Below, in pieces: positions 22,919 through 62,061 of a stretch of 64,000 nucleotides of DNA; position 1 is the first letter of the stretch, and each line of letters opens with the position of its first letter. This stretch comes from Octopus vulgaris (Eukaryota). The position numbers and the translations under genes are program-made. The stretch is taken from positions 40,052,001-40,116,000 of the forward strand of contig OX597837.1 in assembly GCA_951406725.2 (NCBI GenBank), written 5' to 3'. The notes under the pieces were generated by a model, which saw only the letters and a program-made list of their open reading frames with translations, had not been told where the DNA came from and searched no databases.

Positions 22919-23740
22919 TTTTCTACTCTAGACACAAGGCCCGAAATTTTCGAGGAGGGGGCCAGTCGATTACATCGACCTCAGTACACAACTGGCACTT
23001 AATTTATCGACCCCGAAAGGATGAAAGGTAAAGTCGACCTCAGCGGAATTTGAACTCAAAACGTAACGGCAGACGACTTACTACCAAGTATTTCGCCCGG
23101 CGTGCTTAACGTTTCTGCCAGCTCGCCGCCATACAATCTCAAAATATCTTTTTCTACTCTAGGCACAAGGCCCAAAAATTTCGGGGAGCAGTCGATTAGA
23201 TCGACCTCAGTACACAACTGGAACTTAATTTATCGACCCCGAAAGGATGAAAGGTAAAGTCGACCTCATCGGAATTTGAACTCAAAACGTAACGGCGGAC
23301 GAAATACCGCTAAGCATTTCGCCCGTCGTTCTAAACTTTTCTTATTTCTTTATTGCCTATAAGGGGCTAAACATAGAGGGGACAAACAAGGACAGACAAA
23401 GGGATTGAGCTGATTACATCGACCCCAGTGCGTAACTGGTACTTAATTTATCGACGCCGAAAGAATGAAAGGCAAAGTCGAACTCGGCGGAATTTGAACT
23501 CAGAACGTAAAGGCACACGAAATACAGCAAATCATTTCGCCCGGTGTGCTTAACCTTTTTTCTAGCTCGCCGCCACAAATCTCAAAATATCCTTTTCTAA
23601 CTCTAGGCACAAGGCCCGAATTTTTCGGGGGACGGGGGGGGGTGCAGTCGATTAGATCGACCCCAGTACGCAACTGGTATTTAATTTATCGATCCCGAAA
23701 GGGTGAAAGGCAAAGTCGTGCTAAACGTTTCTTATTTCTT
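22919..23740 (-). mobile_element. SINE-D chain (4 bodies, tails alpha and beta)
   Basis: Repeated tatcgaccccgaaaggatgaaagg.aaagtcga core; spacer acaatctcaaaatatc occurs three times. Confidence 0.9.
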
Positions 23741-23754
23741 GGGCAATAAAGAAA

Positions 23755-23960
23755 TGTGTCTGTGTTTGTCCGCCCCACCATCGCTTAACAACCGGTGTTG
23801 GTGTTCTCACGACCTCGCAACTTAGTGGCTCGGCAAAAGGAGTCCGATTGAATAAGTACTAGGCTTACAAAGAATAAGTCCTGGGGTCGATTTGCTCGCC
23901 TTAAAGGCGGTGCTCCAGCGTGGCCACAATCGGATGACTGAAACAAGTAAAAGAGTAAAT
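23755..23960 (+). mobile_element. SINE family A 3' half
   Basis: tgtctgtgtttgtcc..ggcggtgctccagc..gactgaaacaagtaaaagagta. Confidence 0.88.
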
Positions 23961-24191
23961 GAGCAAATGAGTAAATTAATAAATTATAATCTCTCTCATT
24001 TCATTTAATCTCACTCTCATTTAATCTCCTTTTCTCTTATTTAATCTCTCTCTCATCTAATCTCTCTCTTTTTCTTTCACTCTTTCTCTCTCTCTCTTTT
24101 GTTTCCTATCTCTTTCGTTCTCTTTCTCCCTCTATTTCATTCTTTGTAACTGTATGTGTATATTTTTGATCGCCTGTGTATTTGCCTGCAG

Positions 24192-24406
24192 CGCCAAAAT
24201 TACTGTCTCCAAAACAGCCTGAATGTCCGACCAGCTGTGCCAAATCGTCAACATCAAAACAACTGCACCCAGGTCTCTTATTCTTAATCTCAGGGGTGGT
24301 TCTTGCGGGTTTCAAATCTATTCGAATTTGTGAATCGAGGAAGAAAAGAAGAAATTTTTCAGAAACGGAAGACTGTTGTGCAAATGTTTTAACACAAGCT
24401 GTGTAG
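24192..24406 (+). CDS. probable terminal coding exon of a host membrane protein (Ser/Thr/Pro stalk, hydrophobic segment, basic tail)
   Basis: Long pyrimidine tract (about 23990-24170) and ttgcctgcag acceptor; phase-1 open frame PKLLSPKQPECPTSCAKSSTSKQLHPGLLFLISGVVLAGFKSIRICESRKKRRN..LTQAV*; unique non-repeat sequence follows. Confidence 0.55.
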
Positions 24407-25007
24407 ACAGAAACAGTAAATTCTTTACTACTAAACACGAAAGTATTTCTTAAATATTTCAAGAAACGAACGAACCAAAACAATGGTTTAAATTGAATAA
24501 TTCAGTTATAAAAGAAAGCTCGGATTCGCCTTTAGCGCTTCATCTATAGACTAACGTTACATGTCGTCTGGTGATTACTGAAGATGGAGTCATTAACCAG
24601 CATTTAAGAAGTTTTGCTGTATGTTGTCGTACGAATCGAGTCATTTGTCTGTTGCTTGTTCTGTTGTTATTAAGTGTTGTGTGGATACTGGCAGCTTAAT
24701 GTTGAATAAAAACCCCTCAGATAAAAATCTTTCATTGCACGATAGTGTAAATACCCAAGATTTGGCTTCTAAAATGGAAACTAAATCGTTATTACGTCGC
24801 AGAAACATGATATGAGTTGTATAGAGCGTAGCATCTCGTATGGAATGATTTGAATTTTCTTACAAACCAGCAGATTTCAGAAGACAGATAAGTCAGTTAC
24901 ATCATCTCCAGTGCTTAAATAGTGACGATGTAATGATGATGATGATGATGATGATAATAATAATAATAATAATAATAATAATAATAATAATAATAATAAT
25001 AATAATA

Positions 25008-25290
25008 AACCAGAATGTGGAATCTAAAAACAGAAACAATTCCTATCATAGTAGGTGCATTAGGCATGATAAAAAAACATATTCGGACAAATACATAACT
25101 AAAACACTAAGACTTACAAACACATATAACATACAGAAAATTGCACTACTGGGCACTGCACACATCCTACGCAGAACACTTTCCATACAATAACCATCAG
25201 AGCATCACAACAAATCACAGCACGTACCCAAGGCACACAGAGCTGCGCTCGGTGGTGAAGTGAAAGCACACAATAAAAATAAAACTACTG
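25008..25290 (+). mobile_element. R4/Dong-clade LINE 3' end inserted in (TAA)n
   Basis: RMWNLKTETIPIIVGALG/..IQKIALLGTAHILRRTLSIQ* (restriction-like endonuclease C-terminus) plus 3' UTR; (AAT)n on both sides. Confidence 0.9.
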
Positions 25291-25374
25291 AATAATAATA
25301 ATAGTAATGATAATAATAATAATAATAATAATAATAATAATAATAATAATAATAATAATAATAATAATAATAAT

Positions 25375-59095: not shown

Positions 59096-59403
59096 AATCT
59101 GGAAGAAATGTTTGGTGCGATTGCAATTTTGATACTTAGCCCCCTTTTAGGATGGTGATTAGAAGGGTCTTTTTCACATGAATAGAAAAAAGATAGGGAA
59201 AGAAGAGAAAAAAGGGACAAATAGGATAGATTTTAATTCTGTTTATAAATATTTATACGCGGGAAATTAGATGCGAGATCGATGATACTCATATCGAACT
59301 TACAAGAATTTATTGATAGGAATATTAAAAAAAAAAAAATTCTTTTCTTTGCCAATCACAATTATGGAATACTTCTCTCATTTCCCTCATATACGAAGGG
59401 GCT

Positions 59404-59718
59404 ATGGAGGCGCAATGGCCCAGTGGTTAGGGCAGCGGTCTCGCGGTCGTAGGATCGCGGTTTCGATTCCCAGACCATGCTGTACTCTTTCACCACAACT
59501 TTCTCTCACTCTTACTTCCTGTTTCTGTTGTACCTGTACTTCAAAGGGCCGGCCTTGTCACTCTCTGTGTCACGCTGAATATCCCCGAGAACTACGTTAA
59601 GGGTACACGTGTCTGTGGAGTGCTCAGCCACTTACACGTTAATTTCACGAACAGGCTGTTCCGTTGATTTGGATCAACCGGAACCCTCGTCGTCGTAACC
59701 GACGGAGTGCTTCCATCC
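59404..59718 (+). mobile_element. SINE-B(T2) with an internal deletion
   Basis: 13-bp TSD atacgaaggggct at 59391-59403 and 59719-59731. Confidence 0.92.
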
Positions 59719-59990
59719 ATACGAAGGGGCTGAAATGTTCCTGGCTTTGTGTAAAAGAAAATACAGGAGCATAAATTAATTCGGTTATTCAATATTTTCC
59801 CCTCTCAAATTTACTCATTTATAGCAGCTGTCCTTTGGTTTTTTCTAAGGCCTGTAAAATAACTCGGAAATTAGGGCCTCCTAATACGACTTTCGTGATA
59901 CCCTTAAAACCAGGAACTATTCAGAACACCCTCGTGAATATCTCTTAAGTCTTTTCTTCGTAGAAATAATACATCAGATATTATATATAT

Positions 59991-60395
59991 AGGCGCAGGA
60001 GTGGCTCTGTGGTAAGTAGCTTGCTAACCAACCACATGGTTCCGGGTTCAGTCCCACTGCGTGGCATCTTGGGCAAGTGTCTTCTGCTATAGCCCCAGGC
60101 CGACCAATGCCTTGTGAGTGGATTTGGTAGACGGAAACTGAAAGCAGCCCGTCGTATATATGTTTATGTATGTGTGTGTGTGTGTGTGTGTGTCTGTGTT
60201 TGTCCCCCTAGCATTGCTTGACAACCGATGCTGGTGTGTTTACGTCCCCGTCACTTAGCGGTTCGGCAAAAAGAGACCGATAGAATAAGTACTGGGCTTA
60301 CAAAAAGAATAAGTCCCGGGGTCAATTTGCTCGACTAAAAGGCGGTGCTCCAGCATGGCCGCAGTCAAATGACTGAAACAAGTAAAAGAGTAAAG
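59991..60395 (+). mobile_element. SINE family A, full length; another copy at 62225-62630
   Basis: Complete from the head to the 3' aaaagagtaaaga end. Confidence 0.95.
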
Positions 60396-60821
60396 AGAGA
60401 GAGAGTATCCAATGTATTGATTTCAGAAAGATTCCACTGTCGAAGAATCTGCGTATCTTTGCAAAATCGTAAGAGTTTGCGAATCAAATCAAAATTAATT
60501 TCCTTTCGAATTATTTTCTATTTGAATTACTATTTGTTATTACAGTGATAGTATTTCATTTATTTTAGCTATTTTTTTAAAGAAATAGTTTTATCAGAAT
60601 TTCGTTTCTGTTTCGTAGAGTTTGTTTAATACGGAATGCGAAACTTCGTATTTATCTTTATCATTATTTCATGTAGATTTTTAACCTTCATTTATTTATT
60701 CTATTTACATCTAGTTGCATATCTCGTCATATTAGCGCGTATATTTTACACATCTTTCAACGTCACCTTGTACATCACGCATTTATCACTATATTAGCAT
60801 ATATATATATATTATACACAT

Positions 60822-61127
60822 GTGGAGGCGCAATGGCCCAGTGGTTAGGGCAGCGGACTCGCGGTCGTAGGATCGCGGTTTCGTTTCCCAGACCGGGCGT
60901 TGTGAGTGTTTATTGAGCAAAAACACCTAAAAGCTTCACGACAGCTCCGGCAGGGGATGGTGGTGATCCCTGCTGTACTCTTTCACGACTCTTTCTCTCT
61001 TTCTTCTGTTGGCCTGCTCGCTTAGCCAGCGGGGTGGCGTCATTCGAAGGCTAAAACAATGCGAAGCGCATTGTGACCAGCGATGTATAACACCATCTGA
61101 TGGTCTGGTCGGTCACGTGATCACGTG
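60822..61127 (+). mobile_element. SINE-B(T1), full length
   Basis: TSD attatacacat at 60811-60821 and 61128-61138. Confidence 0.93.
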
Positions 61128-61188
61128 ATTATACACATATTACCAAGTTAGTCTGTACTTTACACATTTGATCATCAATTTAACCCGT

Positions 61189-62061
61189 GGAGTCGATGTA
61201 ATCGACTTAATCCCTTTGTCTGTCCTTGTTTCCCCCCTCTATGTTTAGCCCCTTGTGGGTAATAAAGAAATAAGAAACATTAGCACGAGTGGTGAAATGC
61301 TTAGCGGTATTTCGTCTGCCGTTACGTTCTGAGTTCAAATTCCGCCGAGGTCGACTTTGCCTTTCATCCTTTCGGGGTCGATTAAATAAGTACCAGTTAC
61401 GCACTGAGGTTGATATAAACGAATTAATCCGTTTGTCTGACCTTGTTTGTCCTCTCTGTGTTTAGCCCCTTGTGGGTAGTAACGAGAAATAGATATTTCG
61501 TCTGCCGCTACGTTCTGAGTTCAAATTCCGCCCAGGTCTACTTTGCCTTTCATCCTTTCGGGGTCGATAAATTAAGTACCAATTACGCACTGAGGTTGAT
61601 ATAAACGACTTAATCTGTTTGACTGTCCCTGTTTGTTCTCTCTGTGTTTAGCCCCTTGTGGGTAGTAAAGAAATAGATATTTCGTCTGCCGCTACGTTCT
61701 GAGTTCAAATGCCGCCCAGGTCTACTTTGCCTTTCATCCTTTCGGGGTCGATAAATTAAGTACCAATTACGCACTGAGGTTGATATAAACGACTTAATCT
61801 GTTTGACTGTCCCTGTTTGTTCTCTCTGTGTTTAGCCCCTTGTGGGTAGTAAAGAAATAGGTATTTCGTCTGCCGCTACGTTCTGAGTTCAAATTCCGCC
61901 CAGGTCTACTTTGCCTTTCATCCTTTCGGGGTCGATAAATTAAGTACCAATTACGCACTGAGGTTGATATAAACGACTTAATCTGTTTGTCTGTCCCTGT
62001 TTGTTCTCCCTGTGTTTAGCCCCTTGTGGGTAGTAAAGAAATAGGTATTTCGTCTGCCGCT
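61189..62061 (+). repeat. SINE-D(beta) chain with 184-bp periodicity
   Basis: Unit starts at 61306, 61492, 61676, 61860 and 62044; the last three full units are near identical. Confidence 0.95.

Follow-up and report, generated by a model that had tools for sequence, protein, structure and literature searches.

Chains of the short interspersed element (SINE) D in the genome of Octopus vulgaris very probably arise by self-insertion, in which a newcomer with a tail derived from long interspersed elements (LINEs) lands in the head of an older D copy and usually replaces that head. The chains were noticed in a window, the whole stretch of 64,000 nt analysed here (contig OX597837.1, positions 40,052,001 to 40,116,000; G000:C24:40.05–40.12 Mb within the 2.8-Gb genome). 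Self-targeting at two sites in the D head, positions 45 and 12, and a non-random choice of flanks by solitary copies are supported by motif counts and by target-site duplications (TSDs). We also consider it probable, judging from the sequences, that sub-lineages of D inherit their target through read-through RNA that pairs with the nicked target. Priming through read-through homology was one of several suggestions in an initial annotation of the window, and we retain it as the best reading.

Tail variants, flanks, and target sites

The D consensus, derived by majority from 139 full copies, has 228 nt and is preceded by 5′ (A)AGGC. D is short, non-coding, and flanked by TSDs, with more than 130,000 exact tail matches genome-wide, as expected of a SINE. 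Positions 1–163 are common to the older alpha and A2 subfamilies, whose tails differ. The beta-type tail ends in AAAGAAATA, with TAGT, TAAT, CAAT, or CAGT before it, and 567 of 600 tails have this standard end. By eye, we take words at positions ∼8–19 and ∼70–82 of the head to be like A and B boxes, and the central part presumably resembles the 66-bp Meta domain, which follows the head in MetaSINEs. Searches of Rfam found no tRNA match to D at E ≤ 10, with nothing near gathering scores, and no snRNA match. TTTT is absent from the consensus, so a transcript made by RNA polymerase III (Pol III) would run past the tail. A long stem predicted in the D head (32258–32285 in the window) pairs positions ∼29–39 with ∼46–56, which places site 45 at a palindrome.

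Tail variant and flank are strongly associated. Motif counts are exact matches across the whole genome; detailed analyses cover 1.0 Mb, later 1.8 Mb, of loci that lie nearly all on contig C1 and are each centered on an exact tail match. TAGT tails occur 82,469 times and are followed by GGTAT in 44,635 cases (54%) and by AGAAA in 758; CAAT tails are followed by AGAAA in 5,733 cases and by GGTAT in 1,235. The odds ratio from these counts is ∼270, and reversed-pattern controls gave 0. Some frequency counts, indicated as such, exclude loci that had been selected by flank; one of these is based on a set of 474 tails. In this set, TAGT precedes site 45 in 155 cases, site 12 in none, and non-D sequence in 108 (46 GGT and 23 TAT). 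The corresponding numbers are 37, 2, and 25 for TAAT; 13, 1, and 13 for CAGT; and 6, 14, and 97 for CAAT (non-D flanks include 28 TAT, 25 AGA, 11 AAT, and 5 GGT). The split is thus one of TAGT/TAAT versus CAAT, it is statistical, and it involves at least four favored flanks.

These counts qualify two rules of the initial annotation, namely that beta tails are always followed by a ggtattt-like sequence from inside the head and that tails ending in aataaagaaata are followed by site 12. Nine junctions in the window (32458, 32642, 32824, 33006, 45098, 58764, 61492, 61676/61860, and 62044) do restart D at position 45, but the tails at 32642, 58764, and 61492 are mutated, four of the flanks are GCTATTT or GATATTT, and 108 TAGT tails of the set above have non-D flanks. 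Similarly, the junctions at 23343 and 61273 do restart at position 12, so the second head site stands, but the rule attached to it fails: a 5′-truncated CAAT tail at 4882–4923 (plus strand) is not followed by site 12, TAAT prefers site 45 by 37 to 2, and CAAT flanks are mostly non-D.

TSDs indicate that the flanks are target sequence. Of 97 arrays that have both a full head and a terminal tail, 67 carry a TSD (null of 0.5%); it starts directly at the tail end, and the motif is present in the upstream copy too. Chains of two to seven units are enclosed by a single TSD. G is rare directly before the cut, and both D sites are preceded by C. Non-D copies flanked by GGT continue to resemble D positions 45–51 (57, 52, 38, and 30 of 68 at +4 to +7). 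The initial annotation had asked whether flanks of solitary beta copies are random, and the presence of the motif in the TSD on both sides argues that they are not. It had also correctly described one such copy in the window as lying in an unrelated element, exactly before ggtatttt. This solitary full-length TAGT copy (46285–46517, minus strand) is inside another tRNA-type SINE, and its 16-bp TSD copies, downstream at 46269–46284 and upstream at 46518–46533 (both minus strand), are identical at 14 of 16 positions and both begin with GGTAT.

Head replacement and inheritance of the target

In-register joins number 292 at site 45 and 43 at site 12, and the pattern of a head followed by a short TSD and a full copy was found nine and three times, respectively (counts cover all loci, duplicates within chains included). 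Terminal units are 62 alpha, 27 A2, 41 TAGT, 39 CAAT, and 52 unclassed, and alpha types are never first. In 160 chains, the first unit is less diverged than the last in 87 and more diverged in 46 (P = 3e-6). Dimers in which a beta unit is joined to an older one (13 beta-on-A2 and 17 beta-on-alpha) have a beta-like head and an old-type remainder from position ∼56 (56–60). The 13 TAGT-type-on-A2 dimers have A at position 16 in 9 of 13, versus 3 of 40 solitary A2 copies, and G at position 33 in 11 of 13, versus 13 of 40. Similarity between units 1 and 2 at positions 45–59 is not above that of shuffled pairs. The beta-like head, the old remainder, and the unduplicated 45–59 together suggest that the newcomer usually replaces the old head. 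A first model, joining at a TSD, was rejected because 45–59 is not duplicated from the target. Replacement may proceed by pairing of complementary DNA (cDNA) with homologous upstream DNA, an inference drawn by analogy to melanogaster-type R1. The most likely mode of chain growth is insertion into older copies of D, in most cases with replacement of the head, together with local duplication.

Target preference is likely inherited, because body lineages split targets at the same tail, TSDs show a polarity, and some insertions include run-ons. A haplotype test of ten linked columns was applied to 77 solitary TAGT copies. Those with G at position 154 are flanked by TAT in 16 cases and GGT in 9, and those with A by TAT in 1 and GGT in 21 (P = 2e-5); at position 122, A is associated with 20 TAT and 13 GGT, and T with 0 and 15. 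The TAT-flanked TAGT sites are distinct loci. Trees were built with tail columns removed and with copies that have other flanks or many gaps left out. On these trees, flanks changed 5 times versus 12.5 when shuffled for 42 TAGT copies (P = 0.001), 7 versus 10.5 for 31 CAAT copies (P = 0.02), and 27 versus 50 for all 106 copies. As for polarity, the two copies differ within the first 5 nt in 26 of 78 anchored TSDs, which were not chosen by flank. The downstream copy is nearer one of four favored motifs (GGTAT, AGAAA, TATAT, and AATAT) in 21, the upstream copy in 4, and one is a tie (P = 9e-4; a stricter TSD anchor leaves 28 cases, too few). Mutation alone would be symmetric, so the 21:4 polarity points to RNA. 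In two insertions, 26 and 29 nt of D head lie between the tail and the TSD. Additionally, the last six tail bases are doubled before site 45 in ∼87 of 100 matches listed, of 1,771, which we infer to reflect slippage along an RNA whose next base is G.

We propose that a Pol III transcript of D would run past the tail into the 3′ flank of the parent copy. The tail would be bound by the ORF2 protein (ORF, open reading frame) of a LINE, which would nick DNA at loosely defined sites where the base ahead of the cut is a pyrimidine or A and seldom G. The first five to seven read-through bases would then pair with the primer. A source copy before GGTATTT would thereby seed GGTAT copies, and one before TATAT would seed TATAT copies. 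For a copy that landed at D 45 or 12, the RNA extension would match hundreds of thousands of D heads, and this is proposed to create a self-reinforcing loop. The cDNA, being homologous to the old head, would usually replace it and leave in-register units of 184 or 217 bp; less often, a 13–16-bp TSD and a full copy would result instead. Duplication of DNA afterwards could lengthen some chains.

Several findings weigh against inheritance by this route. The favored motifs were chosen post hoc, and short or microsatellite TSDs account for several of the 21 polarity cases. AGAAA, TATAT, and AATA are also similar to the end of the tail, and some of them could therefore be products of slippage. TAGT copies flanked by TATAT are younger than those flanked by GGT (0.022 vs. 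0.030), a difference also expected if LINE endonucleases had succeeded one another. Among 54 short run-ons, only 2 are followed by a TSD, both in or beside inverted D-like DNA. The age gradient along chains is gone in 35 beta-on-beta chains (13 vs. 13). Lastly, GGCAT is missing from old heads that were invaded, which is compatible with selection of targets rather than with their correction. Correction by RNA at target +3 was itself rejected: the share of C56, 16 of 109 in remainders, equals that among T47 heads (16 of 102), indicative of selection.

Cutting preference of the endonuclease alone is an unlikely explanation, though one to be reckoned with. Successive Tx1-type LINE families, one specific for position 45 and one for position 12, would have moved different D sub-lineages. 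Consistent with this, the tail is common to many LINE families that have different flanks, GGCAT heads are avoided, flank lineages differ in age, and ∼80% of GGTAT-flanked first TAGT units (91/114) are in D, which holds 382 of 2,411 sampled GGTAT sites. Crocodilian Tx1-Mar families have likewise been proposed for different SINEU sites (PMC4494074). But the 21:4 polarity and the run-ons before the TSD are left unexplained, and the LINE tails sampled are mostly TAAT, not TAGT or CAAT. Moreover, narrow searches, two junction patterns among them, found no LINE at position 45 or 12 in 20 LINE ends (a small sample), in 20 of 111 junction candidates (19 are D copies and one is a 25-nt tail alone), or in the 1.8 Mb of loci. 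The suggestion in the initial annotation that D-specific LINEs, findable in full at the same two positions, tie each tail to one site is not upheld, given these searches, the TAAT tails of LINEs, and the split of same-tail copies between GGTAT and TATAT by body lineage. Guidance by the tail itself is highly improbable. The tail finishes with six bases whose reverse complement occupies target +3 to +8 at site 45, a GGTA-like word overlapped by the variable TAGT/CAAT bases might serve to capture the primer, and the tail end and site 45 are predicted to form a new small hairpin at the junction. However, the identical tail end is present in lineages that choose TATAT, AGAAA, and GGTAT, CAGT tails act like TAGT (13 at site 45 and 1 at site 12), and folding of tail regions gave z-scores from −1.6 to 0.2, which are not significant.

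Two further explanations concern the chains rather than the target. Insertion of whole chains from multimeric or circular RNA, through rolling-circle reverse transcription (RT) of a circle of 184 nt or through chain masters that are copied whole, would account for entire chains within a single TSD. Longer chains also have runs of near-identical units (e.g., six at 0–0.6%), and there is a weak correlation between the age of the first unit and that of the last (rho 0.22). We regard it as improbable nonetheless: dimer units are mostly as distant as unrelated copies, every subfamily is paired with every other, and 0 of 27,261 chain pairs have at least two rare variants common at both ends (a small sample of a huge family). 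The near-identical runs often share rare mutations 5–8% from the consensus and are followed by a different terminal unit, a pattern compatible with duplication of DNA at a later time. Rolling-circle RT, entertained in the initial annotation, is not needed, since most adjacent dimer units show no close relationship and they often belong to different subfamilies. Amplification of a single ancestral dimer, named there as the alternative, is refuted by terminal units of every subfamily and by the same chain pairs. Recombination or slippage of DNA among dispersed copies, without targeting, is the least probable of all. It is the model given for reptile SINE satellites (PMC10702118), and at least two rare variants are common to 49 of 225 within-chain pairs, versus 0.45% between chains; distances are 0.071 within and 0.101 between chains. 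As a sole cause, it is largely refuted by insertions that consist of head, TSD, and full copy. Joins at two fixed bases, solitary copies with the same motif in their TSD, and joined units that often belong to different subfamilies also argue against it.

If sub-lineages of D do inherit their target through read-through RNA, specificity might be heritable outside the element, a broader proposition that we advance more tentatively. The 3′ flank would be a short guide for daughters, making D a natural, evolving case of RNA-guided target-primed reverse transcription in a SINE. Specificity could drift without protein change, and landing in its own head could lock in self-targeting, overwrite old promoters, and build satellites. 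If true, sequence-specific retrotransposition can arise or change without evolution of the endonuclease, and SINEs would be tied to the birth of satellites by a defined mechanism in which young copies replace the promoters of old ones. Steering of insertion by the flank would also bear on RNA-programmed gene insertion with non-LTR (non-long terminal repeat) enzymes. More than 100,000 natural insertions and intact ORFs of partner LINEs provide material for testing.

Position 45 itself varies. C is present there in 40% of solitary TAGT copies and in 12 of 15 copies of the TATAT lineage, which leaves their own head without GGTAT. Invaded remainders have G in 161 of 171. C at position 45 is possibly an escape from being overwritten.

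Chains and copies within the window

All five chains reported in the initial annotation are present (22918–23718, 32230–33026, 44736–45325, 58620–58992, and 61188–62059), but the first consists partly of units split by a triplicated TSD. On the minus strand, this locus has a full-length D with an alpha tail (22918–23129), an alpha-tailed remainder from head position 12 (23149–23342), a full-length D with a CAAT tail joined in register to site 12 (23343–23574), and a 5′-truncated alpha-tailed D from position 91 (23592–23718). The TSD, of 16–17 bp and beginning with GATAT, is at 22902–22917 (copy 3), 23133–23148 (copy 2), and 23575–23591 (copy 1), all on the minus strand. Between 22902 and 23591, a non-D target is therefore triplicated, with one site re-used and TSDs as spacers. 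The order of alpha tail, gap, and full copy recurs in more than 20 cases in the 1 Mb sampled. Next to this locus, at 23720–23765, a minus-strand tail end with site-12 bases abuts a plus-strand CAAT tail, inverted tail-to-tail.

Two chains on the minus strand are joined at site 45. One includes an alpha-type D that starts near head position 12–14 (44736–44932), an alpha-tailed remainder from position 45 (44941–45098), and a full-length TAGT unit joined to site 45 (45099–45325). The other is an alpha-tailed remainder from position 45 (58620–58764) with a full-length TAGT-type unit joined to site 45 (58765–58992).

The remaining two chains are on the plus strand. A four-unit TAGT chain at 32230–33005 has one unit of 1–228 and three of 45–228, with a period of 184 bp. 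In the last chain, a 5′-truncated TAAT unit (144–228; 61188–61272) is joined to site 12 of a TAGT unit of 12–228, which is followed by three near-identical units of 45–228 (61273–62043). Units of this run are 0.6–1.8% apart and have 7–8 rare variants in common, which we read as local duplication. Both chains end within the next unit, as noted initially, with run-ons of 21 nt into a fifth unit (33006–33026) and 16 nt (62044–62059), and no TSD was found for either. Downstream of the last chain, there is no D remainder within the next 4 kb.

Other repeats are also associated with D. Two other tRNA-type SINEs in the window (4650–4880 and 46180–46660) each host a D insertion. Elsewhere, D tails are within arrays with periods of 264 bp (C1:7184638–7186003) and 101 bp (C1:15779651–15780174), which are other satellite units from D.

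Partner LINEs and known systems

The view that the D tail was taken from L1/Tx1-type LINEs holds up. By BLAST, 11 of 20 LINE 3′ ends match the D tail over their last 22–47 nt, the best over 41 nt at 93%; flanks of these LINEs are variable. A profile search with zf-RVT yielded 150 scored matches, many in frames of 1,130–1,148 aa, and the 20 LINE ends were drawn from these. Two full LINEs that share the tail have an ORF1 of 459–473 aa and an ORF2 of 1132 aa. ORF2 has endonuclease, RT, and zf-RVT domains (Pfam), as in the L1 superfamily, and its nearest solved structure is human L1 ORF2p (E 2e-69). One of the two ORF1s has a zf-CCHC, compatible with Tx1. The partner LINEs probably belong to the Tx1 clade, a group defined in PMC3747384. 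Comparison of the LINE proteins with the ESM Atlas returned generic LINE clusters only, and neither this comparison nor the search of solved structures yielded a named Tx1 reference.

LINE ends vary in ways that touch on D. The LINE form of the tail (L421:6520–6552 and other LINE ends) has AATAAA 6–11 nt before its end, so a polyadenylated LINE mRNA would be expected to include a small number of bases from the flank; in the SINE, this word is disrupted in the TAGT variant. A LINE family with a 1140-aa ORF2 and a different tail (L384–L387 and L400; G000:C2:73.04–73.07 Mb) has one common downstream sequence and stands in tandem with a spacing of ∼5.4 kb. Another downstream sequence is common to L390, L391, and L393. 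The LINE L396 has at its end a hairpin of related form and an extended (ATT)n run, like alpha tails, and is a candidate partner of the older D subfamily. At L044:595–1345, ∼750 bp of LINE-like DNA, apparently antisense, is within a D head near position 63.

We found no description of a self-targeting SINE or of D chains in searches of the openly accessible literature. In its accessible part, a paper on O. vulgaris repeats (PMC13282606) gives counts of L1-Tx1 and SINE families only. The MetaSINE superfamily (Nishihara 2016, PMC4824008) resembles D in its conserved central part and exchangeable LINE tails, and its tRNA-type head has a putative counterpart in D; the words "tandem," "target site," and "Tx1" are absent from the main text of that paper as available, and the partners of bivalve Meta SINEs are Nimb and CR1-Zenon, not Tx1 (PMC11481361). 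SINE-derived satellites of squamates, ascribed mainly to unequal recombination (Vassetzky 2023, PMC10702118), are, like D chains, tandem repeats of part of a SINE and not yet homogenized. D differs in having tens of thousands of joins that fall at a single base and bring together units of various subfamilies.

In crocodilians, the target preference of SINEU-3 is ascribed to Tx1 LINEs, the Tx1-Mar families (Kojima 2015, PMC4494074). Like D, SINEU-3 forms tandem copies, and two insertion regions are used differently by SINE families. But its target is Mariner-N4_AMi, its tandems sandwich a TSD, and its tails are poly(A). D, in contrast, targets its own head, has joins that in most cases replace this head and leave no TSD, ends in a LINE-derived tail, and varies in preference by sub-lineage. 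With no snRNA match, a LINE-derived tail, and itself as target, D is not of the SINEU/Tx1-Mar type.

Site-specific LINEs offer closer parallels. In R2Ol, SART1Bm, and R1Bm, target-matching bases after the 3′ untranslated region raise the accuracy or efficiency of priming (PMC6530143 and PMC7265360), although the assays concern site-specific LINEs, not a SINE, and the endonuclease fixes the site. R1 of Drosophila forms tandem arrays through re-use of its target (Stage and Eickbush 2009, PMC2718515). Its off-target sites have 4–9 bp of identity, and downstream target bases are sometimes inserted. Read-through RNA is proposed to anneal to the bottom strand, with upstream homology leading to a precise deletion of the target (PMC2718515). 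Similarly, a few bases of the main target recur at off-target sites of D, and downstream bases are carried along, as seen in the extended match of GGT flanks, the polarity of TSDs, and the two run-ons. Conversely, R1 is an autonomous LINE with one fixed target in ribosomal DNA, and in the part of that work available, lineages whose target drifts with the parent's flank are not reported. By analogy, D appears to work like R1, but it is a SINE, its main target is itself, and its preference differs among lineages.

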